A stretch of DNA of 32,000 nucleotides from the NCBI GenBank assembly GCA_030688545.1, contig JAUYHT010000002.1, forward strand, positions 1 through 32,000. Reading direction: 5' to 3'. Below are positions 6,382-21,191 of the stretch, in pieces; the first letter of the stretch is position 1, and each line of letters starts with the position of its first letter. The notes under the pieces were generated by a model, which was not told where the DNA came from, did not search any database, and saw only the letters and a program-made list of their open reading frames with translations. Both the position numbers and the translations under genes were made by a program. The DNA comes from Candidatus Iainarchaeum sp. GTDB lineage: Archaea > Iainarchaeota > Iainarchaeia > Iainarchaeales > VGJJ01.

Positions 6382-6464
6382 GCAGGGATGGCAGAGCGGT
6401 CAAATGCGCCGGCCTTGAGAGCCGGAGCCGAAAGGCTACGGGAGTTCGAATCTCCCTCCCTGCG
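6382..6464 (+). tRNA. tRNA-Ser(UGA): tRNA-Ser, anticodon UGA, type II with long variable arm, no encoded CCA
   Basis: Hand-folded as gcaggga/tccctgc acceptor, 3-bp D stem, ccggc-CTTGAGA-gccgg anticodon arm, variable arm agcc-gaaa-ggct, and T arm gggag-ttcgaat-ctccc. Total 83 nt. Confidence 0.9.
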
Positions 6465-6523
6465 CTCGCTTTCGATCGAGCGCCCCGATGTTAGGGGTAC
6501 TGCCACCGCAGTACCCCAGACGC

Positions 6524-6805
6524 TTTTTCGCCAACCTTTTTCTAAAAGGTTGGTTCTGAATCTCCCTCCCTGCGTGGCCCGTTCCGTCGGGCCGCTGCGG
6601 GGTTAGGGCTCCTTGCAGGAGCCCAGACAAATCGTGAAGTATTTTTTCGCCAACCTTTTTCTAAAAGGTTGGTTCTGAATCTCCCTCCCTGCGTGGCCAT
6701 TAGCATAGGCCGCTCGCTCCCGGGGTATTGCGCGGCAATACCCCTTAAGAAAAGATTTTTCGCCAACCTTTTTCTAAAAGGTTGGTTCTGAATCTCTCTC
6801 CCTAC
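6524..6805 (+). repeat. Three tandem units (period 119 and 113 nt), each a T-rich-loop hairpin plus a decayed copy of the last ~22 nt of tRNA-Ser
   Basis: TTTTTCGCCAACCTTTTTCTAAAAGGTTGGTTCTGAATCTCCCTCCCTGCG occurs at 6524..6574 and 6643..6693, with a degraded copy at 6756..6805. Compare the real tRNA end GAGTTCGAATCTCCCTCCCTGCG. Each unit is followed by two further hairpins. Confidence 0.85.
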
Positions 6806-6928
6806 ACTCGCTTTCGATCGAGCGCTCCAAAATAGAGGGGTCGCTTCGCGGTCCTTCGGTTGATAAAGACTTCATCAATTGTTACGAAATAATTTTTGGC
6901 TGCTCGTTCGCGGAGTACATTTAGTCAA

Positions 6929-6962
6929 TGTCTCTTGAGACAGGGTGATGATTTTTTTTTTT
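6929..6962 (+). terminator. Stem-loop plus T11 tract; candidate terminator for plus-strand transcription of tRNA-Ser plus the repeat array
   Basis: tgtctc-tt-gagaca lies at 6929..6942, followed by 11 consecutive T at 6952..6962. Oligo-T tracts act as archaeal terminators. Confidence 0.45.
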
Positions 6963-6965
6963 AAA

Positions 6966-7838
6966 CTACCCCGCCACCCAAATGGTATTCGTGTCCACAT
7001 TGGCATCGATACCCCGGATGGTGAGGTTGAGATCGTATCCTCCGCGGGTGCCATTGATGTCGTTCAGCATGTCCCAGCGCACCGCGTACTTCACTTTGGC
7101 TACTGAGGGGTTGGCGAGGATCATCTGATAGGTGCCCTCCCCTTCTCCCGAGAGGAAACGGATGGAAAACGTATCGTTCCCCCCCATCGGGGGAGAATAG
7201 GTCCAGCTCGCGGTGTAGGACAAATCATAATCCAGGTCATAGATCTCGGTTACGGTTTGAGAAGCATTGGTGTCCCGGTAATGCAGATAGACCCGCACGT
7301 CGGCATCCCCTTCCTCCCCCACCGAGAGAGGAGTGTACGTCCCCGCATTCCGGTCCGCAATCGCATTGATATCAAGGATGAGGGGATGTGTTCTTTCATT
7401 CGAAGCCAAAAGGATGAGCGTATTAGTGTCAAGGGATTGCTTCCATACCAATCCTGTGTCGGTCCGCCCGGTGAGGTTGCCATCGGTCAATGTCTGAGTG
7501 AGACCTAAAGATATGAGCAGGTTTTGGTCCTCTCCAAAAGTAGTGAGGCGGCTCGAATATGCCTGGAGATTCCCATTCAAATCTAATGGAGAGGGAATAA
7601 ATCCATTCATGAAAAGAGACGCATGGGTATCATTCTGGTCGATCCGGAGATGCTGATCTAAAAGGGAATTGAAATCCAAGGAAATATCCTGGGCCACTCG
7701 AAGCGGCCGAAGAAGCGTCCACCCCTCACTTCGATCCACTTGCAACCCAAAAAAATGGGTGGCCATGAGCTGGGCGAATAGGAGAAGGAAGAGCGCCAGG
7801 ACAAAGGTGGCGAAACTCAGGACAAATCCTTTGTTCAT
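6966..7838 (-). CDS. Pilin-like protein with class III (prepilin-type) signal peptide
   Basis: The start at ATG 7838 forms an ATGA overlap with the upstream stop. The N-terminus is MNKG/FVLSFATFVLALFLLLFAQL. The track ORF extends to 7871. Confidence 0.75.
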   Translation of the reverse strand: MNKGFVLSFATFVLALFLLLFAQLMATHFFGLQVDRSEGWTLLRPLRVAQDISLDFNSLLDQHLRIDQNDTHASLFMNGFIPSPLDLNGNLQAYSSRLTTFGEDQNLLISLGLTQTLTDGNLTGRTDTGLVWKQSLDTNTLILLASNERTHPLILDINAIADRNAGTYTPLSVGEEGDADVRVYLHYRDTNASQTVTEIYDLDYDLSYTASWTYSPPMGGNDTFSIRFLSGEGEGTYQMILANPSVAKVKYAVRWDMLNDINGTRGGYDLNLTIRGIDANVDTNTIWVAG

Positions 7839-8275
7839 CCGGATGGCCATGCCGTCACCTCCACCACCCAAAAATTAGCATCCGGGGGAGTAGGGACGAT
7901 GAATCCATGACGCACGCGCTCCACCCCCGCGGTCTGGAGCACGCACCCGGTTTTGGTGACGATGAACGCGGCGATATTCGAATCCGGAGAAGAGAACACC
8001 TGCACACTCCCGCACAATGTGGCGGGCCACGCGTCGATAACCGAACGAATAGGAGTTGTATTGTCGAGGATAACCCCCTCCTGGAGCAATTGTCCCTGTT
8101 CCAAAGCAAACGCCGCTCGGGTGACCAATTCACGTAAAACGGTTTGGTTCTCCAATCCAGTGCCCGGGGTATTTATAGTTTCAAACGCCAGCCCCACTAA
8201 CGCGAAAAGGATGGCGAGCGCCAGCAGCGCATCGGTGGCGATGACGAATCCATTTTGAGACCAAAGCAATACCAT
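7835..8275 (-). CDS. Pilin-like protein with class III-type N-terminus
   Basis: ATG 8275 lies 1 nt after the upstream TAA. The N-terminus is MVLLWSQNG/FVIATDALLALAILFALVGL. The track ORF extends to 8341 across the upstream gene. Confidence 0.7.
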   Translation of the reverse strand: MVLLWSQNGFVIATDALLALAILFALVGLAFETINTPGTGLENQTVLRELVTRAAFALEQGQLLQEGVILDNTTPIRSVIDAWPATLCGSVQVFSSPDSNIAAFIVTKTGCVLQTAGVERVRHGFIVPTPPDANFWVVEVTAWPSG

Positions 8276-8276
8276 A

Positions 8277-8774
8277 TTACTCCCCCCACACCTGGAGGAT
8301 GGCCACCACGTTCTCGCCCGCATACACGGTGGGAATGACAATCACATTCACCTGGTTCACATCCACGGGGGCGGTGCCGGCCTGGGAGAGGGTTTGACGG
8401 TTGGTATCCTGCAAAGTAATGTAGAAGTTAACATCGGGGATACGCAGGGCCGTTTTGAGGCTGGGGTAATCATCCCCATTCCAATCCCGCAAGGCCGCCC
8501 ATTTGGAGGAGGAAATTTGCATGCCATTCTCGATCAACCCCACACTCGTAATACCATTCCGGTCAGACAGATGATCCCAATACACCGGGTTCCCGGGGCT
8601 TCCGAATAAGGCCTGCGCGACTCCCTCTGCCCGACGCGCGGATTGAAACCTAAGGATTTGATCCACGGCCTGCTGTTCCAATTGGGATGAGAGCAAGGCG
8701 ATCATGGTCAAGGCGAATAGAAAGATGGTGATGGCGAGGAGGGCGTCCGAACTATACAATTGTCCTTTTCTCAT
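8277..8774 (-). CDS. Pilin-like protein with class III signal peptide
   Basis: The N-terminus is MRKG/QLYSSDALLAITIFLFALTMIALL. An ATGA overlap links it to the upstream gene. Confidence 0.8.
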   Translation of the reverse strand: MRKGQLYSSDALLAITIFLFALTMIALLSSQLEQQAVDQILRFQSARRAEGVAQALFGSPGNPVYWDHLSDRNGITSVGLIENGMQISSSKWAALRDWNGDDYPSLKTALRIPDVNFYITLQDTNRQTLSQAGTAPVDVNQVNVIVIPTVYAGENVVAILQVWGE

Positions 8775-9139: not shown

Positions 9140-9178
9140 GATCTCAATAGTGGCTTGCGCCTTCCGAAGAGGAGGGAT

Positions 9179-11698
9179 TCAGACCCCTCCCAATGAAATA
9201 TGCTGGTCGAAAATCGCATTCATATCCGAAAACCCTTGGAATAAATCCAGATGAAGTCGCGTGGGGGAAGGGATATGGACTGCGTTTCCATCATAGCGGT
9301 AATTCGAATTGATGATGGTGGTAGAGAGGAGATTGATGCCTAACGAAAATGGATAACTAGGATCTCCCACATAATTGGGCGCCGAACCTGGCACGCCCGG
9401 GGTGTTTGCCACCGGATACCACACTCTCACGTCCCGCAGGCGCGTGCTGTTAAAGCCGAGGGTGACAATGTACGTATTATTGGCATTCGTGTCATCGGCA
9501 ATACGGAGATGCACATTCTTGTCTCCGCTTGATGAAACGAATTTGGTGAGGAGAAATTGGTTCACATCTGGCATGGATAAGGGAGGGGTGCCCGCATAGG
9601 TTCGAGCGAAAGGGATGATGTCAAAATCTCCCAGGGAATACCTGAAAGTATTTCGCGGCCGCGCCACGGGGGAGTTGGAAAAGCCACTATTGTTATCCGC
9701 CTCATCCAAGAAGACGAGAGAGAAATAATAGTCCAATCCCGCATTGAGATCTGTTACCAGTATTGTCCCCGCGGATCCCCCCTGGAGAAAAGGGCCATTG
9801 AATGAAAAACTGTTGGCGGCATCGAATTGAGCTGGGGTGGCGATGGAGGTGGGGGAATATTTCACGACAGCACTGGAAACAGTCCCCGAGTAATTATCAT
9901 CCCCCGGATACGTGAATCGGAGGAGTACCGATTCGGCGTCCGAACCGGATTCGGCGGTGAAATTGAGCACGCTTCCCGGAGGCGTAATATCTTGCGCGCA
10001 CCCGGATCCCAATATTGTTCCCGTGTATTGGGTGCCATCCCCAAATGAAACAACAGGTTGAAACTGCTCATTCTCATCCGAGATGACCGAACTGAAGAGT
10101 ATCTCATTGTCTGAAAGAACACCGGATGCGGAGAGAGTGACATCGCTCACGTCCAATTCATCCCCATCTCCTCCACTTCCCGAAAAGACAGTGTTGCCGT
10201 CGATGACCAGGGTATTCACCACCCCCCTCTCAGTATCGCAGTTCCACCACCGCTGAAGGATAATCGAGGAGATGACTAGGGGTTGGCTGCCCGTGTTACG
10301 AAGGGTAAACCCATCCACGATAGATTCTTCCGCGGTGGCCCCGCTCCAATCCCACTGAAAATAGGCGCTTCCCCCATTAACTTGGACTTCCACCCCCAGG
10401 ATGAGGTGGTTGGCTCCCGTGAAATCAGTGATCGAAACGCTCCCCGTATACAACCCCAAATCAGTTCCACCGGGTACCGTCACCTCCACGTTTACATTTT
10501 GGCACGATTGGGCCGAAAGAGATGATATGATGGAAATGGGCGTAATCCAGTCACCCGCGTTCCCGGAGGAGGGGGTGAAGGATAAGTTGGTGAGGGGAGT
10601 TTGGCCCACGTTGCAAAGCTGGAGGGTCAGGGAATTGGTATCTGCTCCCAGGGTAGAAAAACGCAAAACGGAAGGAACAGACGTGAGCAACCCCTGCGTA
10701 TTGGGAAACACCTCCACATTCACTGGAATAGTTATTGATTCCGGGGTGCCGCTGATGTCCGCATTCATGGTAAGATACCCCACGTAATTCCCAATGGCAG
10801 TGGATTCCGAATAAAAATTCAGGTCCACGTTTTGGGATTCCCCCGGAGAGAGGGTAAAGACCGAAGGTCCAATGGATGCATCCACTAATGTATGGTCCCA
10901 CGTCCACACCAATACTGTATCCGCATCCTGCGTCCCCGTGTTTGAAAAAACCACCCGCGCACTGGCATTGGCATCCCGGGGCATCGCCACATACACGCTA
11001 TCCACATCACTCGTCACTGTTGAGAGGCTGATGAGAACGGAATCCGCATCAGACACTAACCGAAAACGGACTAACCCGGGTTGGCTTGGAATCGTCCCGC
11101 GCAGGGAAGGAATGGCTGTCCCTGCGATTTGGAAATCATACACCTGGAGGATGATGGATCGTCCTTCCAAACGTGAACGGGACGAATCAACCCCCCGCGG
11201 CCAGGGGATGATAATATCACGTGTATTCCCGGGCCCCAAAGAATATACCTCATCGATTTCCCGGATTAACCGTTGCACCCCCTCCTGACCTAACCGAATG
11301 GCATGCTGTTTTTCCACTCGGGAAACCTGGTTCACCGTAAAATCCACGAGCGCCGCCAGCAACACCAATGAGATGGCGAGCACGATCAATAATTCCACGC
11401 TGCTCTGCCCGGCCGTTTTCGTCCGGCCGCCCCGAGGGACGAGGGAGGTCTTTGACCTCCCAGCAGCCAAAACGATTGGTTTCCTTCCGATGCACGCTCT
11501 CGATCGTGCGCTCCGATGGATGAGGGGGATTTTCAATCCCCCGGCGGCCGAATCAATGGGTTTCATTCCAAAGCACGCTTTCGATCGGTCAAATCGACTT
11601 CGATATTTTTTACGAAAAGGATGATTACTTTTGATTGAGCGCTTCAAGGGTCGAAGAGGATTTTCTACCCCCTGACGGCCATGACTTCTATTTGTCAT
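9179..11698 (-). CDS. Giant pilin-headed surface protein (class III signal, Ig/CARDB-like repeats, FN3-like domain), paralog B
   Basis: The cleavage-type motif TAG/QSSVELLIVLAISLVLLAALV is encoded at about 11410. The ORF is open to ATG 11698 (ATGA overlap with paralog A). Alternative starts are ATG 11566 and TTG 11470. TTG 11470 gives the leader MAAGRSKTSLVPRGGRTKTAG, which parallels paralog A. There are four conserved Cys. Confidence 0.8.
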   Translation of the reverse strand: MTNRSHGRQGVENPLRPLKRSIKSNHPFRKKYRSRFDRSKACFGMKPIDSAAGGLKIPLIHRSARSRACIGRKPIVLAAGRSKTSLVPRGGRTKTAGQSSVELLIVLAISLVLLAALVDFTVNQVSRVEKQHAIRLGQEGVQRLIREIDEVYSLGPGNTRDIIIPWPRGVDSSRSRLEGRSIILQVYDFQIAGTAIPSLRGTIPSQPGLVRFRLVSDADSVLISLSTVTSDVDSVYVAMPRDANASARVVFSNTGTQDADTVLVWTWDHTLVDASIGPSVFTLSPGESQNVDLNFYSESTAIGNYVGYLTMNADISGTPESITIPVNVEVFPNTQGLLTSVPSVLRFSTLGADTNSLTLQLCNVGQTPLTNLSFTPSSGNAGDWITPISIISSLSAQSCQNVNVEVTVPGGTDLGLYTGSVSITDFTGANHLILGVEVQVNGGSAYFQWDWSGATAEESIVDGFTLRNTGSQPLVISSIILQRWWNCDTERGVVNTLVIDGNTVFSGSGGDGDELDVSDVTLSASGVLSDNEILFSSVISDENEQFQPVVSFGDGTQYTGTILGSGCAQDITPPGSVLNFTAESGSDAESVLLRFTYPGDDNYSGTVSSAVVKYSPTSIATPAQFDAANSFSFNGPFLQGGSAGTILVTDLNAGLDYYFSLVFLDEADNNSGFSNSPVARPRNTFRYSLGDFDIIPFARTYAGTPPLSMPDVNQFLLTKFVSSSGDKNVHLRIADDTNANNTYIVTLGFNSTRLRDVRVWYPVANTPGVPGSAPNYVGDPSYPFSLGINLLSTTIINSNYRYDGNAVHIPSPTRLHLDLFQGFSDMNAIFDQHISLGGV
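11410..11590. repeat. Three tandem 81-nt copies of the two-hairpin module, upstream of or overlapping the 5' end of paralog B
   Basis: Hairpins are cggccg-ttttcgtc-cggccg (11410..11429) with ggaggtc-ttt-gacctcc (11444..11460), then gcacg-ctctcgat-cgtgc (11492..11509) with gggggat-tttca-atccccc (11524..11542). A partial copy, gcacgctttcgatcggtc, lies at 11573..11590. Confidence 0.8.
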
Positions 11699-14046
11699 AC
11701 GTCACTTCCCCCAGTATCATAAGGGTCGGTCCCCTCGGTCATATTATGGCTCATGTTGAAGTCAATTATCCCCAAAACTACATCCAAATACAGGTCATTA
11801 GGCACCCCCATTCCCACACGGATGCCATTATATCTCCGATTAGAAGGAAATTCGATGGAGTCGATGAGATCTACCCCGCCCGATATCGGGAGGGACTTGG
11901 CAGTGTCATAATTAGCGCTAGTGGACAGATAATTGGCCGGTGCCGGGTACCAAAAACGGACGCGGTTGATGTCAGTCGCATTCATGTCCACGGCAGCGGC
12001 CCATACATTTCCGGTGTTCACATCTTCCACTATGCGGAAGGCGATCCGGGCAAAAGTTACGGCGTCCCCTAATTGGATTTGATGAAGGCGCATTTTATTG
12101 ACATCACTAATCCCAACAGGAGTGGAACTCCCAGGATAGGAACTAGCGAAATAGCTGAAATTGAAATCCCCTCCCGTGAAACGGTATTCGTTCCATGGGC
12201 GTTGCTTGGGGGAATTGGATAACCCACTCATGTTTCCATTCTCGTCCTCAAAGCGGATGGACCAATAACGTGAAAGTCCGGCCATCTGATCGGCGACCAC
12301 GAAAGAGCCAGCGGTTCCTCCTGCTGGGAGGGGAAGGGGGCCGGGCCATGTCAGAGTAGTGGCTCCGTTCCAATCCACCTCCGAATCAATTACTGCCTCA
12401 CTCTTCTTGAGGGTAGCATACACGGCATTCCCAGTGTAGTTGTCGTCCCCCGGATAAGTGAAAGTAATGGCCACGGTGCCCGGCTCCGCACCGGGAACCA
12501 CTATCAAATCCGTCACCGTGGCGGGAGGCGTTACATCACCTGTGCATCCCGGACCAAAGGACGCGCTCGTGTATTCCGACCCATCTGAAAAGGTGACTAC
12601 CGCGCGGAAAGTCTCATTATCATCCTGGATGTTATCGTTGAAAACCAAGGTGTTATCCGAATAGGAGGTCAGCACGGGCAGGGTAACATCTGAAGTATCA
12701 GCTGTGTTTCCGTCCTGGAGGCTTCCTGAGAAGATAACCCCCCCATCCACTTCCATCTGTTCCCAATAGGAATGGGAAAGATCGCATTGCCACCAATCCT
12801 GCAATTTGACATGGGTGAAGGTGATGGGTTTCCCGCCTCGATTAGTCAATGTATAACCCGTAATGGCATTCACCGTTTTTCCCCCCGTGGTCCAATCCCA
12901 ATCGAAGAAGGCGCTCATTCCCAATACGGAGAGAGCGACCGGAATAGTCAAGGTATGGCTGCCCGTGAAATCGGAGAGGAAAAGCGACCCATAGTAGGTG
13001 CCCAACCCCGCGTCAGGGACGTGGGCCACAAGGTCAAAATTGGTGCAGGATTGGGCACTCAAAACAGGGAGGGTGGGTAGGCCCTCCAACCAATCTCCTG
13101 GGTCCCCAGAGGAAGGGGTGAAGGTGAGGGATTGGATGTCCGAATCCCCCACATTGCATAATTGGATGGCGACGCTATTGGTATCCGCGCCGAAGGTGCT
13201 CATCTCCACCGAAGCAGGAAAAGCCACGAGAGGGGAGCCCTGGCCCACGAGAACGCTGGTGCTCAGAGGGAGGCGCAGCGTCTCGGTGTTTCCTGGAAAA
13301 GTCGCGGTAATTGAAAGCATCCCCGTATAGGTCCCCACGGCCGTGGCCCCACTTGAAAAATTGACGTCGAAGGGAAACGTGGCATTCCCTAGGATGGTTC
13401 CTCCTGAAGGAAAAACGATCCCATTCATGTCCACGTGATTAAAATCCATGGCCATAACCAGGGAAGCATCCTCGTCCGACGAATTAGTTAGGGTTACACG
13501 TACGCTCGCATCCTCATTCCGGAGCAACGTCACATGGACCCGAGAAGGGTCCCCCGTTAATCGGGCGTCCCCCAAAAGGACATATCCCTCAAACGCTTTC
13601 ACTCGGAAGAACTGATTGCCCGAATGGGAAGGGAGGGAACCCGCGAGAAAAGGAATGGTTTCCCGTGCGATCTGGGAATCATACACTTGCACCACTATCG
13701 CATGATTTCCAACATACGTGTCAGAAGCATTAACCCCCTCCGGCCACACTAATTGGATTTGGCGCGTGGCCCCCGGGCCTTGGGCATACACCTCTTCTAC
13801 CGCTCGGGCGATGTTTTCCAATGCTAACTCTCCTGTCTTTATATCGCGCTGTTTCTGGAGCGCGCTGATCTGGTCGGCCGTGAACGCCACGAGCACCGCG
13901 AGGATGACCAACCCCGCCGCGAAAAGGACAAGGACTTCTACGCTGCTCTGCCCGCACGCTCTCGATCGTGCGCTCCGATGGACGAGGGGATTCTTCGAAT
14001 CCCCGGCGGCCGCCATTGCTGATTTCAATCGTGCGTCCGCGTCCAT
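11695..14046 (-). CDS. Giant pilin-headed surface protein, paralog A
   Basis: The signal is ...NPLVHRSARSRACG/QSSVEVLVLFAAGLVILAVLVAF. ATG 14046 is 29 nt downstream of the TATA box at 14068..14077. Other possible ATGs are 14061 and 14016. It aligns with paralog B along its whole length, for example FGADTNS..QLCNVG, FTPSSG..GDW, SAQSC, TPP...FTYPGDDNY.G. Confidence 0.85.
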   Translation of the reverse strand: MDADARLKSAMAAAGDSKNPLVHRSARSRACGQSSVEVLVLFAAGLVILAVLVAFTADQISALQKQRDIKTGELALENIARAVEEVYAQGPGATRQIQLVWPEGVNASDTYVGNHAIVVQVYDSQIARETIPFLAGSLPSHSGNQFFRVKAFEGYVLLGDARLTGDPSRVHVTLLRNEDASVRVTLTNSSDEDASLVMAMDFNHVDMNGIVFPSGGTILGNATFPFDVNFSSGATAVGTYTGMLSITATFPGNTETLRLPLSTSVLVGQGSPLVAFPASVEMSTFGADTNSVAIQLCNVGDSDIQSLTFTPSSGDPGDWLEGLPTLPVLSAQSCTNFDLVAHVPDAGLGTYYGSLFLSDFTGSHTLTIPVALSVLGMSAFFDWDWTTGGKTVNAITGYTLTNRGGKPITFTHVKLQDWWQCDLSHSYWEQMEVDGGVIFSGSLQDGNTADTSDVTLPVLTSYSDNTLVFNDNIQDDNETFRAVVTFSDGSEYTSASFGPGCTGDVTPPATVTDLIVVPGAEPGTVAITFTYPGDDNYTGNAVYATLKKSEAVIDSEVDWNGATTLTWPGPLPLPAGGTAGSFVVADQMAGLSRYWSIRFEDENGNMSGLSNSPKQRPWNEYRFTGGDFNFSYFASSYPGSSTPVGISDVNKMRLHQIQLGDAVTFARIAFRIVEDVNTGNVWAAAVDMNATDINRVRFWYPAPANYLSTSANYDTAKSLPISGGVDLIDSIEFPSNRRYNGIRVGMGVPNDLYLDVVLGIIDFNMSHNMTEGTDPYDTGGSDV
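13954..14004. repeat. Single copy of the two-hairpin module, lying inside the leader-peptide codons of paralog A
   Basis: gcacg-ctctcgat-cgtgc (13954..13971), linker gctccgatggacga, then ggggattc-ttc-gaatcccc (13986..14004). The hairpin-1 region and linker (about 35 nt) are nearly identical to the 11492..11542 copy, while the hairpin-2 stem differs. Confidence 0.8.
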
Positions 14047-14067
14047 GGGCTGACAACCCATCCCGGG

Positions 14068-14077
14068 CTTAAATAGG
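14068..14077 (-). promoter_or_regulatory. TATA box (minus strand CCTATTTAAG) of the pilin operon
   Basis: The first T is 29 nt upstream of ATG 14046. Confidence 0.55.
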
Positions 14078-14100
14078 TTTATTCCGAACTTTTTAGAAAA

Positions 14101-14156
14101 GAACCCTTTTGAAAAGGGTTCATCGAAATTTTGATCAAACTTTTTCCAAAAGTTTG
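14101..14156. repeat. Two near-perfect palindromes with T/A-rich centres, between the small membrane gene and the pilin promoter
   Basis: gaacccttt-tg-aaagggttc lies at 14101..14121 and caaactttt-tcc-aaaagtttg at 14136..14156. They are of the same type as ccaaccttttt-ct-aaaaggttgg in the tRNA-Ser array. Confidence 0.7.
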
Positions 14157-14290
14157 AAGTTCGATCAAAAAGGTAATACCTCGCCCTTCAGGACGACATG
14201 CGTCCCTCCATAGTGGCGAGCACAAGTAGCGAGAGTGGATGACGTTTCCTAACCGTTGGATACCCCGGCTTTTAGGCCCCCAAGAGGGTG

Positions 14291-14518
14291 TCATTCCTCG
14301 ATGGGCATGGCGCGGATAAGGTGCTTGGAGCGTGCATACGCCCACAATATTCCCACGAGCGAAGCCGTGGCGATGAGATAATACACCAGCGCATCCAACA
14401 GCTGGCGATTCAACTGGGAGAGAATTCCCTCAATCAGGGTGAAGGCGAACACCACCAATAGTACGAGCGAGCTCGTGAGGAGGAGGGTAACCTTCACCGT
14501 ATCCATGATCTCGGACAT
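14291..14518 (-). CDS. Small two-TM membrane protein, unknown function
   Basis: 75 aa, MSEIMDTVKVTLLLTSSLVLLVVFAFTLIEG...YYLIATASLVGILWAYA. A TATA box at 14541..14550 lies 29 nt upstream of the ATG. Confidence 0.6.
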   Translation of the reverse strand: MSEIMDTVKVTLLLTSSLVLLVVFAFTLIEGILSQLNRQLLDALVYYLIATASLVGILWAYARSKHLIRAMPIEE

Positions 14519-14540
14519 GCCATGAAAGAAAAAATCCGAG

Positions 14541-14550
14541 TATAAAAGGG
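14541..14550 (-). promoter_or_regulatory. TATA box (minus strand CCCTTTTATA)
   Basis: 29-nt spacing to ATG 14518. Confidence 0.5.
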
Positions 14551-14641
14551 TTCCTCGGTTTGGCTCTGTCGTAATGTTGTCTGGTAAGGGTTAGGTGTCG
14601 TATTCGTTAGTATTAAAGAGCAGAGTCTCTTTTTTTGAATT

Positions 14642-14965
14642 ATGGGTTTTTTTCAAAAACTTGGGAAAACTATTAATGTAATACTAAAACGCGAATTTTC
14701 TTCTGCCTACATTAGAAAAAGCAGAGAGGATTGGAGTGGAATATATCATGGGGAAGTGAGTCAGGGAAAAAATAAAGGGTGGAGTGGACTAATATATTTC
14801 GCTATGCAAAAAGGCAGCTTTGCGGTCGGACCACTGCCAGCTTTTTATCGTGGAAGAAAAATAAAACATTGGGTTAGAGTTGATGATGATGAAACGAACC
14901 CACATCGTCCAATTTTTTATAAACAAAAAAGAAGAAATCGAAGGCTCCGACACACAAAACATTAG
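14642..14965 (+). CDS. Hypothetical protein in the AT-rich islet
   Basis: 107 aa, basic C-terminus. A TATTAAAG box lies about 29 nt upstream. I recognise no family. Confidence 0.4.
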   Translation: MGFFQKLGKTINVILKREFSSAYIRKSREDWSGIYHGEVSQGKNKGWSGLIYFAMQKGSFAVGPLPAFYRGRKIKHWVRVDDDETNPHRPIFYKQKRRNRRLRHTKH

Positions 14966-15014
14966 ATACTTTTTTCTATGAGATTTTTCCATTTGTTTCT
15001 TTTCAATCCTAAAT

Positions 15015-15497
15015 TTATTTTGGTCTTGATCTTTTTCTCCTGGCAAGACCAGCTCTGTTAGGTTTTTCATAACGAGTGTCAAACCCAGATGGAAGGTAAA
15101 CACGTTCAGGTTGTAGCTTCGGTAAATGAGCACTATCGAGTTGCATCACCCCTCTCCCTATTATTTTTTTGAAAGGAAAAAGAATACGTTTCCCGCTTTT
15201 AGTTATGAACTTTCCTGGGGGCTGAAATCCAAATTTTCTAAGTGAAGTCATTGTTTTGGCAATGGCATCATTGTGTTGTTCGGTGGTGGTAACGTTTAGT
15301 GGAATTTTATTTAACTCCTTCAATCGTTCTCTTTCTATAGCATAAATTTGTTCATATGGAAAATTGAAACGTTTATAGAAAAAAGGGGCAATGGTAAGCA
15401 TTCGTGTAACAGGGCCATTTCTATCTATGAGCTTCTGCCATCTTAAAAGTTCAATAAAATCCCAAATAGATGAAATGGATCTCTTCTTTTCAGGCAT
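15015..15497 (-). CDS. Hypothetical protein in the AT-rich islet
   Basis: 160 aa. A TTATTAAA box has its first T at 15526, 29 nt upstream of ATG 15497. I recognise no family. Confidence 0.5.
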   Translation of the reverse strand: MPEKKRSISSIWDFIELLRWQKLIDRNGPVTRMLTIAPFFYKRFNFPYEQIYAIERERLKELNKIPLNVTTTEQHNDAIAKTMTSLRKFGFQPPGKFITKSGKRILFPFKKIIGRGVMQLDSAHLPKLQPERVYLPSGFDTRYEKPNRAGLARRKRSRPK

Positions 15498-15557
15498 ATT
15501 AACAGCTAACTTACCAAGTTTAATAACATTTCGAAATATCTGAACTGATTATACTAG

Positions 15558-15641
15558 CGCAGGGAACGAGATTCGAACTCGTGCCTCCGTGAGGAGACCG
15601 GCTTTCCAGACCGGCGCGTTAGACCACTCCGCCATCCCTGC
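15558..15641 (-). tRNA. tRNA-Ser(GGA): tRNA-Ser, anticodon GGA, type II
   Basis: The reverse complement folds as gcaggga acceptor, ccggt-CTGGAAA-gccgg anticodon arm, variable arm ctcc-tcac-ggag, and T arm acgag-ttcgaat-ctcgt. Total 84 nt. Confidence 0.9.
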
Positions 15642-15741
15642 CTGATTTGGAGAATGGATGCCATCTCCAGGTCTACCAAACCGTGCAGGCGTACGCATAA
15701 AAAGAGGTGCTTGACCCAGTTTTCATGAGGTGGGAGGAAGG

Positions 15742-18411
15742 TTATTGGTCTGGGATAGAGATTTTCGAGGAACTTGAAATGACGACTCCATCCTCAAAGC
15801 CGTATCCATATCCGAATCCGTAGCTGAGCCCCCGCAAGCGGTCTAAAACCCCTTGCAGCTCGGGCACCCATTGGTAAGCCTCGAGCGTAATGGTTTTCGA
15901 TGCATCCCCTCGTGTAATGGTCACTTTTTCAGTTTGCCCATCCGCACACCCCGGACACCCAAACGTGTCAGGGAGGGTTTGGAAGGAAGCCCAATCCACT
16001 TCCTCTGCGGTGTCAAAATAGGTGCTGCCTGCCGCACGGGTTTCTGTTTTTATCTCGCCTTGCTCGGGAGAGAAATGCTGGATGGTCAACGCTTCCGCAT
16101 CCAATACCACTTGATCATACGGGCAGGCGTTATCCTTGCAAAATCCTCCGCCCCGCCAATACGTGAAAGAATAATCCCCCGGCACGGGGTTGAAACGGAT
16201 TTCTTTGATTTGGTTCAGGGTGGATATGTCATGCGCCTGGATGAGTTTAGGGGACACCGTATAGAGTGTATCTCCGATGGTTAGCGCGCGGCGCACGCGA
16301 TATTCCTCTCCAAAATAATACCCGCGTTTCAGGTCGTCCTCTTGCGTAAGGTGGGTGATGCGTCCGCGCTCGACAAACCCATTATCTAAATCAACCTGGT
16401 ACACGAATGCTCCCTGGAACACTGGTTCCCCGTAGGGGGGGAAATCCATCCACGGATTCTCATCCCTTTGGGTTTCGTATTGCTGCTTCACGTCTTCCGT
16501 AATCTCATGCAATTGGATGGGCAGCACCAATAAGCCTTTTTCTTTATCAAAGAGGAAGGCCTTGTGGTCGTATAGCACATCCGAATCCGTGCCCCGATCA
16601 CCAATCACAACCGAATGCAACTGGATGGGGTTTTTCACATCTGAGACATCGAATATCGCCATCTTCATCCCCAAGTACCAGGCGAAATCATTCTTACCTG
16701 ATTCGAGGGCGTCCTTGCCTATCCCGATGAGGTGTGTCTCATCATACGGGTGCAAATAATTGGAATACCCGGGGATCTTGAGTTTTCCAAGCACTGTGGG
16801 ATTGCGTGGGTTGCTTAAATCCAAAACAAATAATGGGTCCACATTCTTGAATGTCACGAGATAGCCCCTATCTCCCATGAAGCGGGCGGAATAAATTTGC
16901 TCACCGGGGGCTAAACCATCCAATACTCCCACGGGCGCCATGGCCGGATTGAATATGGTGACGCGGCTCTCCGTTTTTGAGGTTTCCATCCCACGGAAAT
17001 CCCATTGACCATCCACCGTGGTGGCGATGCGGAAGAATCCATTATGGGCGTCCATAGAGAACTGATTGAGCACTCGGCCTATGGCCTTTCCCTGGCCTAC
17101 GTATTCAACTGTATTCCCCTTCAAATCAAATTTATGGATAATGGTTTGAGGGGGTTGATACACGTATTCGGGGGGCACTGGAAAAGTTTCAGGGATCTCC
17201 GGAGCGGGCTCTATTTCAGGGGGATTCTCTGGAGCAACCGGGGGTCGTTCTTGTTCATCACTCGGGAGGGGGGTTTGGGTATCCTCATCCGGGGTTGTGG
17301 GAGGAGAAGGATCGGAACTTGAACCACCTGAAACGGAACCGGGTTCAGCTCTGCCAACCATGAGGGGCATGGGCAATCCAACCCCCCATTCGGAGGAGGC
17401 GAGGTACATACTATTCTCCGACGCGTACACCGTTTGGGCGGAACCCACAATGGTCTCCTGGTTCACGCGCAAGGTATCCAAACGCATGGCAGCGAGGGTG
17501 ATGAACTGCTCCGCCTGGATGGGGGGAATATAGCCAATTCTCTCAGGGGCCGCAATGGGTCTAATTACTCCATCTTCTTCCATCTGGGGAATAATAGGGA
17601 TGTCTTTGGCATTAGGTGTATCCATTTGTGCCCAAATTTGATATTGGGGGTATGATGTAATTACGAAATACACTTGTTTACCTATCATGCGGGAGGAGAG
17701 ATACGTGCCCTCATAGGCCAAATCCTTCTCAAGGGTGGGGTTGGAACGGTCTGAAATATCATACACCTGCACCACGGCCTTAGAGATGCTCCAATAGGGG
17801 GGATAGATGGCCGAATCGATTGCAATGCGGGTTTCGCCTTCACGACCTTTTTCACTGTATGGATAGGGATAATCTCCTTGTTCCTGCTTGGTGCCGAAAA
17901 GGATGAGTTGGTTCCCATTCACAAACATCTCCTGGGGATAGATATTATCCAAGGGAATACGAGTGACCACATTGGTTTCACCCGCGGGATAGGCTTTCAC
18001 GATGGCCACGCTGTTCTTGTAAAACGCGTAGATATAAGTCCCATCCGTTTTCACGATATCGGCCTCATCCACGCCTTGCACTTGCACGTTCGTTTGAGAG
18101 TAATTGTTTCCACTCGGTGAAGGGGAAGCGTCTCCACTTCCTTCTGCCGCGGAAGGGGCGCGGGCCGCATTATCCATCGTCATTATCATTTTAGAGGAGA
18201 ACCCACGCGATTGCGCGTCCTGAAACGCGGCGACAATGGCTTGCTCATTCTCAAAACGGTAAATCTTGTCTTCCAGCTTGGGCTGGCCGGGCAATATCGT
18301 GGGATTCATCACCGCGAGCCCCGCGATAACTACCCCCACCAGTATCAATACCGCCAAAATGGTTACACTTCCTCTTTGCATGCTGTTCGCCTCCAAGCCT
18401 ATGGGTTGCAT
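15742..18411 (-). CDS. Membrane-anchored extracellular beta-propeller domain protein (COG4880 / Beta_propel-type)
   Basis: The N-terminal anchor is MQRGSVTILAVLILVGVVIAGLAV. The block YSQTNVQVQGVDEADIVKTDGTYIYAF is the hallmark N-terminal motif of this family. There is a Pro/Glu-rich linker. ATG 18411 fits the TATA box at 18432..18443 better than ATG 18417. Confidence 0.75.
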   Translation of the reverse strand: MQPIGLEANSMQRGSVTILAVLILVGVVIAGLAVMNPTILPGQPKLEDKIYRFENEQAIVAAFQDAQSRGFSSKMIMTMDNAARAPSAAEGSGDASPSPSGNNYSQTNVQVQGVDEADIVKTDGTYIYAFYKNSVAIVKAYPAGETNVVTRIPLDNIYPQEMFVNGNQLILFGTKQEQGDYPYPYSEKGREGETRIAIDSAIYPPYWSISKAVVQVYDISDRSNPTLEKDLAYEGTYLSSRMIGKQVYFVITSYPQYQIWAQMDTPNAKDIPIIPQMEEDGVIRPIAAPERIGYIPPIQAEQFITLAAMRLDTLRVNQETIVGSAQTVYASENSMYLASSEWGVGLPMPLMVGRAEPGSVSGGSSSDPSPPTTPDEDTQTPLPSDEQERPPVAPENPPEIEPAPEIPETFPVPPEYVYQPPQTIIHKFDLKGNTVEYVGQGKAIGRVLNQFSMDAHNGFFRIATTVDGQWDFRGMETSKTESRVTIFNPAMAPVGVLDGLAPGEQIYSARFMGDRGYLVTFKNVDPLFVLDLSNPRNPTVLGKLKIPGYSNYLHPYDETHLIGIGKDALESGKNDFAWYLGMKMAIFDVSDVKNPIQLHSVVIGDRGTDSDVLYDHKAFLFDKEKGLLVLPIQLHEITEDVKQQYETQRDENPWMDFPPYGEPVFQGAFVYQVDLDNGFVERGRITHLTQEDDLKRGYYFGEEYRVRRALTIGDTLYTVSPKLIQAHDISTLNQIKEIRFNPVPGDYSFTYWRGGGFCKDNACPYDQVVLDAEALTIQHFSPEQGEIKTETRAAGSTYFDTAEEVDWASFQTLPDTFGCPGCADGQTEKVTITRGDASKTITLEAYQWVPELQGVLDRLRGLSYGFGYGYGFEDGVVISSSSKISIPDQ

Positions 18412-18534
18412 GTACACCCCTTCCCTGCCCGCCTTTATATATCGCCGCGAATGCGAAGGGAATCGCCTTTCCCCAGTGACAGGAAAGGAAATCCTAACCT
18501 AATTTCCGGCTAAATTGACATCCATTTTCCAATC

Positions 18535-18546
18535 CATTAAATAGTA
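18535..18546 (+). promoter_or_regulatory. TATA box (CCATTAAATAGT)
   Basis: The first T (18537) is 29 nt upstream of ATG 18566. Confidence 0.5.
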
Positions 18547-18565
18547 GTAAGTATTTCAATTTGCC

Positions 18566-19222
18566 ATGCCTAATTCCCATGCTCGAAAACCAGGGAGTCG
18601 TAAAACTACATCTCCGCCTCGGCGCCATCGGGCGGTATCCGGTCGATCAGTAGCCGCTCGAATGCTCGGCCGGGCCCGGACCATGCCGTGGATGTTATCA
18701 CCAAAAATGTTGCGAGTATACAACCAGTATATCCTCGCCATAATGCAAGAACATATTCTAATGGGTCAAACAAAAGACGTTGTCCGTGAAAGAGTTTCAA
18801 ATATCAAAAATATTCGTGAAGCTGTAAAATCGGTAGAAAAGAAGAACCAGTTTTTGAAAGGTCCAAAATATAGAGGGATTTGGGCCCTATTCGTAAAACA
18901 TGTTCGTAAACCGGCCCATCTATCTATGTTTCCAGTTTTTTTAGAAAATTTATCCGCAATTAATCAGCATGGAAGAGCTAGATTTACAAATGAAAAAGTT
19001 AGATTGGTTCTTAGAATATCTGGACCTGAATTTGTAAACTTTTTGGTGGAGGCTGGACCTTATGAAGCGGCAAAGTTTGTGGAATATGTCGGTGCTGAAT
19101 GGGCTGGACGTTATATTAATCGGAATGGTGGATTTCTGACAGTAGCAGATATTCACCTTCATGGTGGCGTATCAAATTTTGCCAGATTCCATAATATCAA
19201 ATACAATAATATAATGCCATAA
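18566..19222 (+). CDS. Hypothetical protein with an Arg-rich N-terminal tail
   Basis: 218 aa. The start is supported by TATA spacing. The first ~55 codons are GC-rich and encode a basic, low-complexity stretch; the rest is AT-rich. I recognise no family. Confidence 0.5.
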   Translation: MPNSHARKPGSRKTTSPPRRHRAVSGRSVAARMLGRARTMPWMLSPKMLRVYNQYILAIMQEHILMGQTKDVVRERVSNIKNIREAVKSVEKKNQFLKGPKYRGIWALFVKHVRKPAHLSMFPVFLENLSAINQHGRARFTNEKVRLVLRISGPEFVNFLVEAGPYEAAKFVEYVGAEWAGRYINRNGGFLTVADIHLHGGVSNFARFHNIKYNNIMP

Positions 19223-19310
19223 TATAACTCAGAACTTATATGAATCCCTTTGTTTCACCATTTGCGACACCACCGGTTTGTTTTTATTTAAGTAACCGAA
19301 TAATGCTATC

Positions 19311-19730
19311 ATGGAAAAAGAATGCGTATTCTGCCAGATCGTTTCGGGCCAGATCCCATCCCACAAGGTATACGAAGATGACTCCTTCCTGGCTTTCCTG
19401 GACATCGATCCCATTTCACTCGGACATACTTTAATCATTCCCAAAACCCATTCGACTACTCTATTAGAGGCGAATCAAAAAGTCCGCGCGGGGATGATTG
19501 AGATGGTGGCGCGATTAGCGCCAGGAATTCTCAAAGCAGTGGGTGCTCCCGCTTTCAATGTGGGAATCAACACCGGCAAAGAGGCCGGACAGATCATCTT
19601 TCACACGCACGTCCATGTGATCCCCCGATTCCCGCAGGATGGATTGAGATCCTGGGGACGCGCGGCTAACCTATCCCCCAACCTTCCTGACATCGCCCAA
19701 AAAATACGACGAGCGTTGGAATCGAAATAA
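19311..19730 (+). CDS. HIT-family (histidine triad) nucleotide hydrolase/transferase
   Basis: The N-terminus is MEKECVFCQIVSG...; the histidine triad is HTHVHVIPR. A TTTATTTAAG box lies upstream. Confidence 0.85.
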   Translation: MEKECVFCQIVSGQIPSHKVYEDDSFLAFLDIDPISLGHTLIIPKTHSTTLLEANQKVRAGMIEMVARLAPGILKAVGAPAFNVGINTGKEAGQIIFHTHVHVIPRFPQDGLRSWGRAANLSPNLPDIAQKIRRALESK

Positions 19731-20410
19731 TGCTTATTAAGCGCGATACGCCCAATCCCCTCGTGCCTACGAAAACGACATCGTACACCCTTACCTTTGG
19801 TCATTCCCCGGAAGGGCGGCCCGAGGTATATGATTTCCTCTGGGAACACCTGGCACCATTCCTATCAACGATGGGCGAAAAACGCGTGCGTGTCACCATG
19901 GGATTGGATAACCCCATTACCCATTGGTACCGCGCCTGCGGCTGTTCCTTGGAGGAAATGGATTCCCTCCTCCGAAAATTTTCTTCCGACAAACGCTTTT
20001 CCCACCGCGTCCATCTGAATGCCCAAAAACCATTTTTGGAAACGCGTATTCCCGTGGAAAAACTGGATAACTTGCTGAACGCCCACAATATCCTCTTCGA
20101 ATATCTCTTTCCCCATATCCAAATTGAAGGGAAGAAGGTGCGCATTGATTTCGATCCGGCGGAAGAGAATGCGATATGGCTGTCCACGGATGCCACCCTT
20201 GGGAAGAAAGGAATGTCATTCCTCGCACGATCCATGTCTAATCCCCTTCATTTATCCGAACGATTGCCTATTTCCAAGAGTTTGATAGATGCTACCCCCC
20301 GAAAAACAAAAAAAAGTTCTTCCCGGAAAAAACCATCCCATCTTCCTTCCAGTAAAACCTCATCCCATTCACGTTCCCAAACCAAAAAGACCAGGAGTCA
20401 CCATCGATGA
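19730..20410 (+). CDS. Hypothetical protein with a Ser/Lys/Arg-rich C-terminal tail
   Basis: 226 aa. A TAATG overlap links it to the HIT gene. The tail is TPRKTKKSSSRKKPSHLPSSKTSSHSRSQTKKTRSHHR. Confidence 0.5.
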   Translation: MLIKRDTPNPLVPTKTTSYTLTFGHSPEGRPEVYDFLWEHLAPFLSTMGEKRVRVTMGLDNPITHWYRACGCSLEEMDSLLRKFSSDKRFSHRVHLNAQKPFLETRIPVEKLDNLLNAHNILFEYLFPHIQIEGKKVRIDFDPAEENAIWLSTDATLGKKGMSFLARSMSNPLHLSERLPISKSLIDATPRKTKKSSSRKKPSHLPSSKTSSHSRSQTKKTRSHHR

Positions 20411-20919
20411 TCATGACGGGAAACCATACTACGGCCCTCATGCACCTGCTGGCATGGACTGAACTTCATCGGCTCCGCGTCACCCAAACCTGGTCCATTA
20501 CCAAGATAAGGGCCGAGCAAACTGTCATCCTCCACCCCACTTCTCATGACCAGCGGGAGGGCAAATTTGATTTCTATGCGGAAACCCCTACCAAAACCAT
20601 TGGATTTGAGGTCCTCACCCGCCCCAGCAAAGGCAAGCTCCTCAAGAAATTCATCTACCGCCCCGAAGTGGACGAATTCGTATTCATCCTTCCCAACGAT
20701 GCCCTATCCAAATACAGGCGCAAGGAACGCTTCGGGAGACGTGTTCAATCCCACTTCCTCCTGCCCTCCCAGTTTGGGGAAAGAGGATTATTCGTCTGGC
20801 TCATCGACCTCCAAGATCGGCGGATCGTCGCCAAGGAACCCTTTTTCAAAATATATAATGTGGACCCCAATGGCCATGCTCCCAAAAAAGGGAAGAAATC
20901 GCGTCGCAGACGGACCTAA
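20407..20919 (+). CDS. Hypothetical protein with a basic C-terminus
   Basis: 170 aa. An ATGA overlap links it to the upstream gene. I could not confirm any clean catalytic motif. Confidence 0.5.
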   Translation: MIMTGNHTTALMHLLAWTELHRLRVTQTWSITKIRAEQTVILHPTSHDQREGKFDFYAETPTKTIGFEVLTRPSKGKLLKKFIYRPEVDEFVFILPNDALSKYRRKERFGRRVQSHFLLPSQFGERGLFVWLIDLQDRRIVAKEPFFKIYNVDPNGHAPKKGKKSRRRRT

Positions 20920-20921
20920 TT

Positions 20922-21166
20922 GTCCAGTTTCGATTGGACCAACCGAGGGTCTACCGAGGGATTTTCAATCCCTCGATAAATCAATTAAAACAATGGCCCT
21001 TTAGCTCAGCAGTCCAATTTCGTTTGGACCAACCGAGGGACATCCCCGTGGGGTTTTTCAAACCCACGATAGATCAATTAAGCCATGGCCCCGCAACTGG
21101 CCCGTTTCGGCGGCACGCTTTCGCGCGTGCAGGACGAGGGACTACAATGGGGGTTTAACAACCCCC
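20922..21166 (+). repeat. Three tandem two-hairpin modules (first two with a 90-nt period) interleaved with decayed copies of the tRNA-Arg 5' end
   Basis: Unit 1 is gtcca-gtttcgat-tggac (20922..20939) with cgagggatt-ttc-aatccctcg (20955..20975). Unit 2 is gtcca-atttcgtt-tggac (21012..21029) with cgtgggg...cccacg (21047..21068). Unit 3 is gcacgc-tttcgc-gcgtgc (21113..21130) with gggggtt-taac-aaccccc (21149..21166). The tRNA 5' relics are ggccctttagctcagc (20995..21010) and ggccccg (21087..21093). Confidence 0.8.
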
Positions 21167-21191
21167 AGTAGGCCTGAATTAGGAAAGTGCC

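Follow-up and report, generated by a model that had tools for sequence, protein, structure and literature searches.

What kind of element would place the same small folded module both beside transfer RNA (tRNA) genes and inside the beginning of genes for pilin-like proteins? The question is raised by positions 1 to 32,000 of contig JAUYHT010000002.1 from Candidatus Iainarchaeum sp. (a 32-kb stretch, hereafter the window), whose minus strand encodes an archaeal type IV pilus-like operon. Three tRNA genes, tRNA-Ser(tga), tRNA-Ser(gga), and tRNA-Arg(tct), all identified by ARAGORN and Rfam, bracket it. An earlier note on this DNA had described modules of two tandem hairpins, alike in architecture and unlike in stem sequence, at four loci, and had likened them to bacterial palindromic repeats, integron recombination sites, or a tRNA-targeting miniature element. 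We find that these modules, each of ~50 nt, are a genuine, lineage-specific family in a clade of Iainarchaeota (DPANN), and that their arrangement around tRNA ends points to spread as DNA.

A covariance model, first built from 15 hand-picked copies and then rebuilt from 24 hits, was run over the window with filters off. It returned ten matches of 34.9–58.4 bits, all on the plus strand and only at the four reported loci (starts at 6464, 6576, 6806, 11411, 11492, 11623, 13954, 20922, 21012, and 21113), the next-best score in the window being 19.6 bits; all the stems listed in the earlier note are present. In a control set of 1.13 Mb, drawn from unrelated viruses and bacteria and including 74 viral contigs picked for carrying a 17-mer like hairpin 1, no match exceeded 21.3 bits, and for that reason the 74 viral 17-mer matches are treated as chance. 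The relatives of the locus were reached through its large pilin-like protein, which has only ten relatives among 5.8 billion proteins; a genome scan located these in metagenome-assembled genomes (MAGs), two of them labelled Candidatus Iainarchaeum (DPANN lineage). The related loci (numbered L003, L014, and so on) all represent one genomic neighbourhood, and the arrangement of three tRNAs around the pilus operon is common to 11 of them. Across 241 kb of Iainarchaeota loci, the model found 26 matches at E < 0.01; beyond the ten of the window, ~16 copies are in related Candidatus Iainarchaeum-type MAGs. Twenty-five of the 26 lie either within ~350 nt of a tRNA (Ser-tga, Ser-gga, Arg-tct, or Ala-cgc) or inside the 5′ coding part of pilin-like genes 1 or 2 (pilin 1 and pilin 2), and the last, at 16094 of L015, occupies the corresponding region of a third pilin-like gene.

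Folded as single-stranded DNA, nine of the ten window copies recover the two-hairpin layout exactly, with z-scores of −2.2 to −6.1 against dinucleotide shuffles; the tenth, at 6806, is decayed (z −0.2). Searches of Rfam 15, at the gathering threshold and at E up to 5, matched only the three tRNAs in the window and gave no family for the modules, ARAGORN called no tRNA within them, BLASTN of the tRNA-Ser array against phages and plasmids gave no match, and literature searches returned no description of this element family. Several known structures were considered and rejected: a tRNA-like fold (hairpin 1 as anticodon arm, hairpin 2 as T-arm), in view of the 8-nt hairpin 1 loops and the lack of an ARAGORN or Rfam tRNA model match; C/D-box, H/ACA, or K-turn readings of the linker, whose motifs did not fit on inspection; and a CRISPR-like array, since the ‘spacers’ all have one architecture and no cas genes are present.

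The architecture is simple. Hairpin 1 has a stem of 5–7 bp and an 8-nt loop, nTTTCGwy; this loop and a CCGA in the linker are the conserved unpaired positions, and the loop resembles a tRNA T-loop. In the 24-sequence alignment, which was fitted to the model and hence flatters the figures, but nonetheless contains at least 12 unrelated stem sequences, 94.7% of cells form a standard pair and double-sided changes occur in 12 of the 12 modelled pairs. The observed covariation score was reached by none of 500 shuffles, and sliding the partner by one column lowers pairing to 45–55%. The compensatory stem changes on a conserved architecture described previously are thus borne out, and at orthologous sites in relatives the stems are kept but altered; none of the outcomes that the earlier note had named as fatal to its claim was seen. 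Taken with the control scan and the relatives’ matches, this covariation already contradicts the plainest alternative, namely that local tandem duplication and chance hairpins, or a likeness imposed by coding for similar signal peptides, account for everything. M5 and M6 (Table 1) are indeed paralogous, being in duplicate pilin genes, and the units within each array are local. However, at least 12 different stem pairs are found in four tRNA contexts, three pilin-like gene types, and 10 genomes, control DNA has no matches, copies at tRNA flanks are non-coding, and the compensatory changes between M5 and M6 alter the peptide (GDSKNP to GGLKIP) with the hairpin kept, all of which leaves this explanation barely credible.

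The pairs themselves are informative about strand. Out of 282 paired cells, 264 are Watson–Crick, three are G–T (1.1%), and seven are A–C (2.5%), and the summed RNA folding energies of sense and antisense strands (−535 versus −545 kcal/mol) show no asymmetry. With almost no G–U wobble and equal strand energies, nothing marks out either strand as the transcribed one; the constraint matches a DNA palindrome, or an element folding on both strands, at least as well as RNA. The earlier suggestion of selection on RNA or DNA structure is therefore not the sole reading of the covariation, since pairs are nearly all Watson–Crick and show no strand preference.

The relation between modules and tRNA ends is most fully displayed downstream of tRNA-Ser(tga), where a 56-nt repeat occurs three times (100%, 100%, and 88% identical) at spacings of 119 and 113 nt, an array missed by Tandem Repeats Finder and recovered by a direct-repeat search. 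The repeat consists of a T-run (tttttcgcc), an A/T-centred palindrome here called pal (ccaacctttttctaaaaggttgg), and a copy of the tRNA 3′ end (ttctGAATCTCCCTCCCTGCG) that starts in the T-loop and reproduces the last 17 nt of the tRNA exactly; modules M1 to M4 occupy the gaps. There is an age gradient, with perfect proximal repeats and a decayed distal fragment and module. Hairpin 1 of M4 is 90% identical to that of M1, and its linker and hairpin 2 correspond to the single trailer module of L003. Because the distal unit is both decayed and the counterpart of that trailer module, we read the array as successive additions beside the gene, M1 being probably the newest unit and M4, from its sequence matches, probably the ancestral trailer. 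M2 and M3 retain perfect stems despite lying beyond two T5 runs, a position that makes their co-transcription with the tRNA unlikely. As a separate observation, most displaced 3′ fragments (window 6554-6574 and 6673-6693; L010, L014, L015, and L005) have one extra T in the T-loop, turning TTCGAAT into TTCTGAAT and TTCAAAT into TTCTAAAT across different tRNAs and genomes; the extra T may mark a recombination joint.

Similar layouts recur in relatives. At Ser(tga) of L014, the order is, as in the window, tRNA, module(s), T-run, pal, and displaced 3′ fragment; the same layout is found with no module at Ser(tga) of L005 and at a tRNA-Gly of L067, and with hairpin 2 only at tRNA-Arg of L017. In L010 and L015, an insert of ~105–110 nt and a duplicated 15–17-nt tRNA-Ser(gga) end are interposed between that tRNA and its original trailer; the module in the insert is reversed in L015, and only a hairpin-2-like structure is left in L010. 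At 5′ flanks, modules preceded by copies of the tRNA-Arg 5′ end are found in the window (the copy before M9 being more degenerate than that before M8), L016, and L017, a copy of the tRNA-Ser(gga) 5′ end followed by pal stands upstream of that tRNA in L011, L012, L015, and L016, and L017 has the equivalent arrangement, 5′ copy then pal, upstream of tRNA-Ser(tga). The direct repeats expected of tRNA-integrating elements are thus present as 13–17-nt blocks at the tRNA 3′ end (window, L014, L015, L010, L017, and L067). For 3′ copies, the identity begins in the T-loop and continues to the tRNA 3′ end; for 5′ copies, it covers the 5′ end as far as the D-loop. Repeated tRNA ends of this sort are what integration into tRNA genes classically leaves behind. 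At orthologous tRNA flanks, the modules are patchy, and the window’s own tRNA-Ser(gga) has no trailer module, unlike that of L003 and L014.

The same flanks provide the case for the main rival, a cis-acting RNA structure in tRNA trailers, leaders, and 3′ untranslated regions that would aid 3′-end formation, oligo-T termination, or protection from exonucleases, the pilin copies being by-products. At Ser(tga), Ser(gga), Arg, and Ala genes of several genomes, no more than 0–11 nt separate hairpin 1 from the tRNA 3′ end, 19 of the 20 tRNA-adjacent copies are co-oriented with the tRNA, T4–T8 runs follow hairpin 2 in trailer copies, one gene has a module after its stop codon, at the same position, in the window (M7), L003, and L015, and the covariation is strong. 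Set against this are the scarcity of G–U pairs and the equal folding energies of the strands, the patchiness at orthologous tRNAs (none at the window’s tRNA-Ser(gga)), the position of M2–M4 behind terminator-like T-runs, the occurrence of copies both antisense and sense within open reading frames (ORFs), and the lack of an Rfam match. A trailer or terminator role is either this rival in full, which we consider rather unlikely, or a secondary use of the element.

Upstream of tRNA-Arg(tct), the loop of hairpin 2 of M9 (TTTAACAA) stands ~31–38 nt before the tRNA and may double as its TATA box, which brings in a further alternative: a lineage-specific DNA-binding protein could use the modules as operators or promoter elements, with the T-rich loop of hairpin 2 as a TATA box flanked by G/C. 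The TTTCGAT of the hairpin 1 loop and the CCGAT of the linker are about one helical turn apart and conserved while the stems vary, hairpin 2 of M9, like its equivalents in L016, L017, and L012, lies ~20–25 nt upstream of tRNA-Arg, the distance expected of a TATA box, promoters of the clade resemble GG-TTAAAAG-CCC, and Watson–Crick-only pairing would also suit a protein site. Yet the stems show covariation in place of conservation, something for which a sequence-specific dimer would have no need, the majority of copies, being in tRNA trailers or within ORFs, have no downstream target to regulate, and duplicated tRNA ends and insertion polymorphism are left unexplained. We regard such sites as improbable.

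Table 1. Coordinates of tRNA genes, modules, repeats, and pilin-like genes in the window.
Feature	Position	Strand	Remarks
tRNA-Ser(tga)	6382..6465	+	ARAGORN, Rfam; last 3 nt are the foot of hairpin 1 of M1
Module M1, proximal	6462..6517	+	hairpin 1 gcgctcg/cgagcgc, hairpin 2 ggggtac../..gtacccc, then T5; 40.6 bits; z −6.1
Repeat copy 1	6524..6574	+	tttttcgcc, pal ccaacctttttctaaaaggttgg, displaced tRNA-Ser 3′ fragment ttctGAATCTCCCTCCCTGCG; exact 15-mer, 17-nt identity block
Module M2	6575..6624	+	41.4 bits; z −3.1
Repeat copy 2	6643..6693	+	100% identical to copy 1
Module M3	6694..6744	+	weak hairpin 1 (4 bp, no TTTCG loop), strong 10-bp hairpin 2; 19 bits with the first model (R1); z −2.2
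Repeat copy 3	6756..6806	+	degenerate tRNA fragment, 3 mismatches in 15
Module M4, distal, decayed	6806..6854	+	35.2 bits; z −0.2
Pilin-like gene 2	9179..11566	-	mature start QSSVELLIVL; G codon starts 11410; signal peptide 53 aa
Module M5a	11410..11461	+, antisense in pilin-2 ORF	56.7 bits; encodes ..AAGRSKTSLVPRGGRTKTAG right before the G/Q site
Module M5	11492..11542	+, antisense in pilin-2 ORF	58.4 bits; encodes ..AAGGLKIPLIHRSARSRAC
Two degenerate remnants	11573-11618, 11623-11673	+	15.5 and 34.9 bits; upstream of likely pilin-2 start codon 11566
Pilin-like gene 1	11695..14046	-	ATG 14046, 21 nt after TATA-like ATTTAAG (14074-14068); signal peptide 32 aa
Module M6	13954..14004	+, antisense in pilin-1 ORF	57.5 bits; encodes ..GDSKNPLVHRSARSRAC before G/QSSVE
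Two pal palindromes upstream of pilin 1	14101..14157	.	gaacccttttgaaaagggttc and tcaaactttttccaaaagtttga
Module M7	20922..20975	+	54.1 bits; begins 2 nt past stop codon of ORF 20407-20919
Displaced tRNA-Arg 5′ fragment GGCCCTTTAGCTCAGCA	20995..21011	+	3 mismatches; 0.07 matches expected by chance
Module M8, preceded by tRNA-Arg 5′ copy	21012..21068	+	45.1 bits
Module M9	21113..21166	+	39.8 bits; same arrangement in L016, L017, L012
tRNA-Arg(tct)	21191..21267	+	ARAGORN, Rfam

The remaining copies are in the pilus operon, which includes a T2SSE ATPase (4408-6351), two FlaJ/UpsF-like membrane proteins (T2SSF/UpsF-like genes), and six genes whose products begin with a class III-type signal (G/QSSVE.. 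or G/F.., the slash marking the start of the mature product, then a hydrophobic helix). The hallmarks of archaeal type IV pilin-like genes are thus seen: a class III signal peptide that ends in G or A, with Q or F and a hydrophobic helix after it, and an operon shared with a PilB/FlaI-type ATPase and a FlaJ/TadC-type membrane protein. Curated pilin models did not match the pilin-like proteins of the window, so the label ‘pilin-like’ rests on the signal motif and the operon. Copies here had been assigned to a pilin leader or gene 5′ end; they prove to be in frame within the region coding for the signal peptide, antisense, between the start codon and the G/Q site. Pilin 2 illustrates the effect, since its orthologues in eight related genomes have leaders of only 4–10 residues (e.g., MxRG/Q), and two modules plus remnants are found in the window only. 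The start of pilin 1 can be placed from its promoter: in relatives, the ATG is 21 nt past the end of the TTAAAAG core of the promoter-like GGTTAAAAGCCC, and similarly ATATAAAG plus ~21 nt stand upstream of their pilin 2. The conserved spacing suggests leaderless pilin mRNAs, and on this sequence pattern the pilin-1 mRNA is probably leaderless.

From this same promoter and ATG, pilin 1 takes only 3–8 codons to reach the G/Q site in L020, L007, L015, and L008 (MDKG/Q, MVKG/Q, and similar) and 32–53 codons in L010, L014, L003, L004, and the window. The extended leaders are composed of modules and pal elements and are open in frame in every case. L014 and L020 have identical promoters and differ by a block of 46 codons; relative to L010, L014 has a 54-nt insert of hairpin 1, linker, and pal in sense orientation, and L003 has a homologous 55-nt insert at the same point in antisense. 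In L015, a cassette is nested in the loop of another hairpin 1, and this nested pair is part of the leader of the L015 orthologue of window 6966-7871, a third pilin-like gene. Such insertions are absent from most orthologues of the pilin genes. Database gene calls for the orthologues P0003, P0005, and P0006 start at or before the pilin-1 ATG and include the inserted repeats.

The presence of related modules in tRNA trailers and pilin genes could also reflect a trans-acting antisense RNA, which RNase Z or RNase P would cut out of precursor tRNA and which would pair with the 5′ coding region of pilin mRNA and so control the making of pili. The trailer copy M1 and the pilin copies M5 and M6 do have CGCTyTCGATCGwGCGCyCCGATG in common, in the opposite sense to the pilin mRNA, and tRNA genes and pilus operon are neighbours in all relatives. 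This idea is very improbable, however, as most relatives have modules at tRNA flanks but none in pilin genes, the pilin-gene copies of L014 and L015 are in sense orientation, and the complementarity is confined to hairpin 1 and linker of one pair.

We favour a different reading, although we give it only about an even prospect of being right: the modules are the core of non-autonomous palindromic DNA cassettes of ~55–120 bp that accrete at tRNA ends by recombination in T-arm-like hairpins. The parts of a cassette are hairpin 1, the CCGA linker, a second palindrome (either the G/C-rich hairpin 2 or the A/T-centred pal), and, in the tRNA-Ser(tga) array, a T-run. Cassettes are flanked on one side by a complete tRNA end and on the other by a displaced copy of the same end, with several stacked in series. 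Spread at the DNA level is favoured over a fixed RNA by the variable occupancy of orthologous sites, the occurrence of either orientation at a single site, the nesting, the stacking of units between tRNA-end repeats, and the Watson–Crick pairing. In mechanistic terms, a cassette would enter by site-specific recombination, with the crossover in T-arm-like (or D-arm-like) hairpins, and would supply a new tRNA end together with a trailer and an oligo-T terminator, leaving the tRNA gene intact. If hairpin 1 mimics the T-arm, resident cassettes would become new targets, and arrays and nesting would be explained. In a compact genome, cassettes would persist only where tolerated, i.e., at tRNA flanks, just past stop codons, and in the N-terminal stretch of class III signal peptides; at the last, the prepilin peptidase would remove the affected region and only in-frame, stop-free copies would survive. 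Any use of the hairpins by the host, for instance in 3′-end formation, would be secondary.

Several observations weigh against spread as DNA cassettes. Neither the window nor the fetched flanks, including the tRNA flanks of L011 and L016, yielded an integrase, casposase, or Y1/HUH transposase, and the sole transposase of the window is of DDE insertion sequence (IS) type (1407-2474 (+), PF01609, E 6.6e-25); the search for a co-occurring recombinase or transposase that the earlier note had proposed showed, in this DNA, no integrase, RAYT, or Y1 enzyme. Stems that differ between copies are unusual for ends recognised by one sequence-specific enzyme, and a circle of 60–120 bp is implausible as a recombination substrate, which would call for larger parents that were trimmed or for another mechanism. 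The pilin-site insertions have no flanking duplication. Both the co-orientation of the tRNA-adjacent copies and the oligo-T found after array copies at tRNA-Ser(tga) of the window, L003, and L014 fit a transcript-level function too. Lastly, the sampled loci are a single MAG neighbourhood, and the mobility reading covers that neighbourhood only. A bolder version of the proposal, in which the cassettes are a new class of gene-less integrating elements of 55–120 bp, with T-arm-like attachment hairpins, a T-arm mimic of their own, delivery of a new tRNA end plus trailer and terminator, self-extending arrays, and pilus signal peptides lengthened and diversified as a result, is possible but doubtful and is offered tentatively.

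The companion repeat pal is a second family, made of palindromes of the form N4-6 C TTTT(T) NN AAAA G N4-6 and often found beside TTTTCGCC or TTTGATCAAAA. In the window, it is found at 6531-6553, 6650-6672, 6763-6785, 14101-14121, and 14135-14157. The Iainarchaeota loci (241.5 kb) contain 29 copies, of which 20 are no more than 300 nt from a tRNA, in zones that make up 6.9% of bases, and several abut tRNA 5′ ends at −1 to −3; bacterial loci have two in 600 kb. A metagenome scan with the pal pattern found pal in other archaea, and the 21 metagenome loci that have only this motif in common with the window contain no two-hairpin modules; scans of viral contigs with the pal pattern and with the tRNA-Ser 3′ 17-mer gave 0 matches. 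In other metagenomic archaea (L059 1232-1339 (-) and L072 907-1034 (-)), pal and GGCGAAAAA are inside an insertion in the anticodon loop of a tRNA, 38 nt long in L059 and longer in L072, in an orientation that avoids a T-run; the insertion looks like an intron, and these tRNA genes were missed by ARAGORN and found by the Rfam tRNA model.

Larger foreign DNA is also seen near these tRNAs. Directly after the 3′ end of tRNA-Ser(gga), at 14500-15556, ~1 kb of 33–37% GC content (neighbours 50–60%) contains two ORFs of unknown function, 15015-15497 (-) and 14642-14965 (+), and probably came in as foreign DNA; a second tRNA fragment was not found for it. The tRNA-flanking regions of relatives carry genes for a PemK/MazF toxin and a MazE antitoxin (L011 6640-7032 and 19523-19801) and a BRO-N protein (L016 5015-5860), the MazE and BRO-N genes being within 0.6 kb of a tRNA 3′ end; the ORFs scanned there included no integrase. 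With the low-GC stretch, these make tRNA 3′ flanks of this clade hot spots for foreign DNA, a point in favour of the cassette reading. At 15557-18417, the gene order of the window, compared with L003, is unlike that of all relatives, the beta-propeller gene and tRNA-Ser(gga) having moved across the pilin genes with the tRNA inverted, and the end points of the rearrangement fall at the two tRNA-Ser genes, which have similar 3′ ends. Elsewhere, a small ORF at 31482-31871 (-) matches a putative phage metallopeptidase (PF18894, E 4e-19).

DPANN genomes are small and usually thought poor in such elements; the modules would be the first description of a repeat family of the repetitive extragenic palindrome (REP) type, or of a mini-integrative one, in DPANN archaea. 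They would show selfish DNA absorbed into the removable part of a class III signal peptide, whose length goes from ~4 to ~50 residues, and genome annotators will mis-call the starts of such pilin-like genes. A recombinase that recognises hairpin shape over sequence would, if real, be of practical interest. The locus also offers concrete, datable cases of tRNA gene ends duplicated and displaced, which bear on the debate over the origin of split, permuted, and intron-bearing archaeal tRNA genes (e.g., PMC3293823).

How do the modules compare with known systems? Like REPs and bacterial interspersed mosaic elements (BIMEs; REPINs), they are short, repeated, imperfect palindromes, mostly at the 3′ ends of transcription units and often in mosaics with other short motifs, with possible secondary roles in termination or mRNA stability. 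Unlike inverted REP doublets, however, they are two unlike hairpins in tandem, in an archaeal host, at low copy number, tightly linked to tRNA ends, and with copies within coding sequence. The analogy drawn previously with REP/BIME is not upheld, as the GTAG head is absent at nine of the ten window modules (the single GTAG not being at the 5′ end) and no RAYT (Y1 transposase) gene was seen in the 32-kb window. The analogy with integron attC sites likewise fails: conserved structure with unconserved sequence and uniformly oriented arrays are features of both, but the attC core pair RYYYAAC/GTTRRRY occurs at none of the ten window modules within 15 nt on either side (there is one lone RYYYAAC), no tyrosine recombinase domain (IntI) was found among the scanned window ORFs, and the modules have no cassette ORFs and an archaeal host. 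Archaeal intrinsic-terminator-like or oligo-T regions have in common with the tRNA-Ser trailer copies a G/C-rich hairpin, a T-rich loop, and then T4–T8. The T-run is, however, at a distance of 4–13 nt, pilin copies and tRNA-Arg leader copies have none, and hairpin 1 and linker have a conserved sequence that a terminator does not need.

Other comparisons are with mobile DNA. Miniature inverted-repeat transposable elements derived from a DDE IS have terminal inverted repeats like the ends of that IS, and a short target-site duplication; in the modules, the first and last 12 nt agree at only 2–6 of 12 positions, and neither module-like ends nor terminal inverted repeats were found around the IS transposase at 1407-2474. 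Palindrome-associated transposable elements (PATEs), derived from IS200/IS605, are known in haloarchaea (PMC3119063; mechanism in PMC10055086). PATEs and modules are alike in being non-autonomous, in having hairpins at or near both ends and no terminal inverted repeats, and in uniform regional orientation, all ten window copies being on one strand. The modules differ in that no TnpA/TnpB parent was seen in the sampled DNA, stems differ between copies, the left end has no conserved 4–5-nt target (left flanks ..ctgcg, ..ctgccc, and ..taatt), and tRNA sites show target duplications of 13–17 nt. Casposons insert site-specifically at the 3′ end of a tRNA gene with a long target duplication, of 14–15 bp (13–17 for the modules), but the modules have no Cas1, polymerase, or terminal inverted repeats and are about a hundred times smaller.

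Among the analogies first proposed, the tRNA-targeting miniature element is the one that fits best. tRNA fragments of this kind have been linked to mobile elements in archaea (PMC3293823). In comparison with tRNA-integrating elements (tyrosine integrases and CIME-like tandem accretion), the units are only 55–120 bp and gene-less, no integrase was found in the window or fetched flanks, the same type of cassette can face either way with respect to the duplicated tRNA end (L014 versus L015), and copies also occur inside ORFs with no tRNA-derived repeat. Conversely, an identity block running from the T-loop to the tRNA 3′ end is a classic integrase sublocation, and with these elements the modules have in common an insert that separates the complete tRNA end from its displaced copy, as well as serial stacking, with the newest unit beside the gene.

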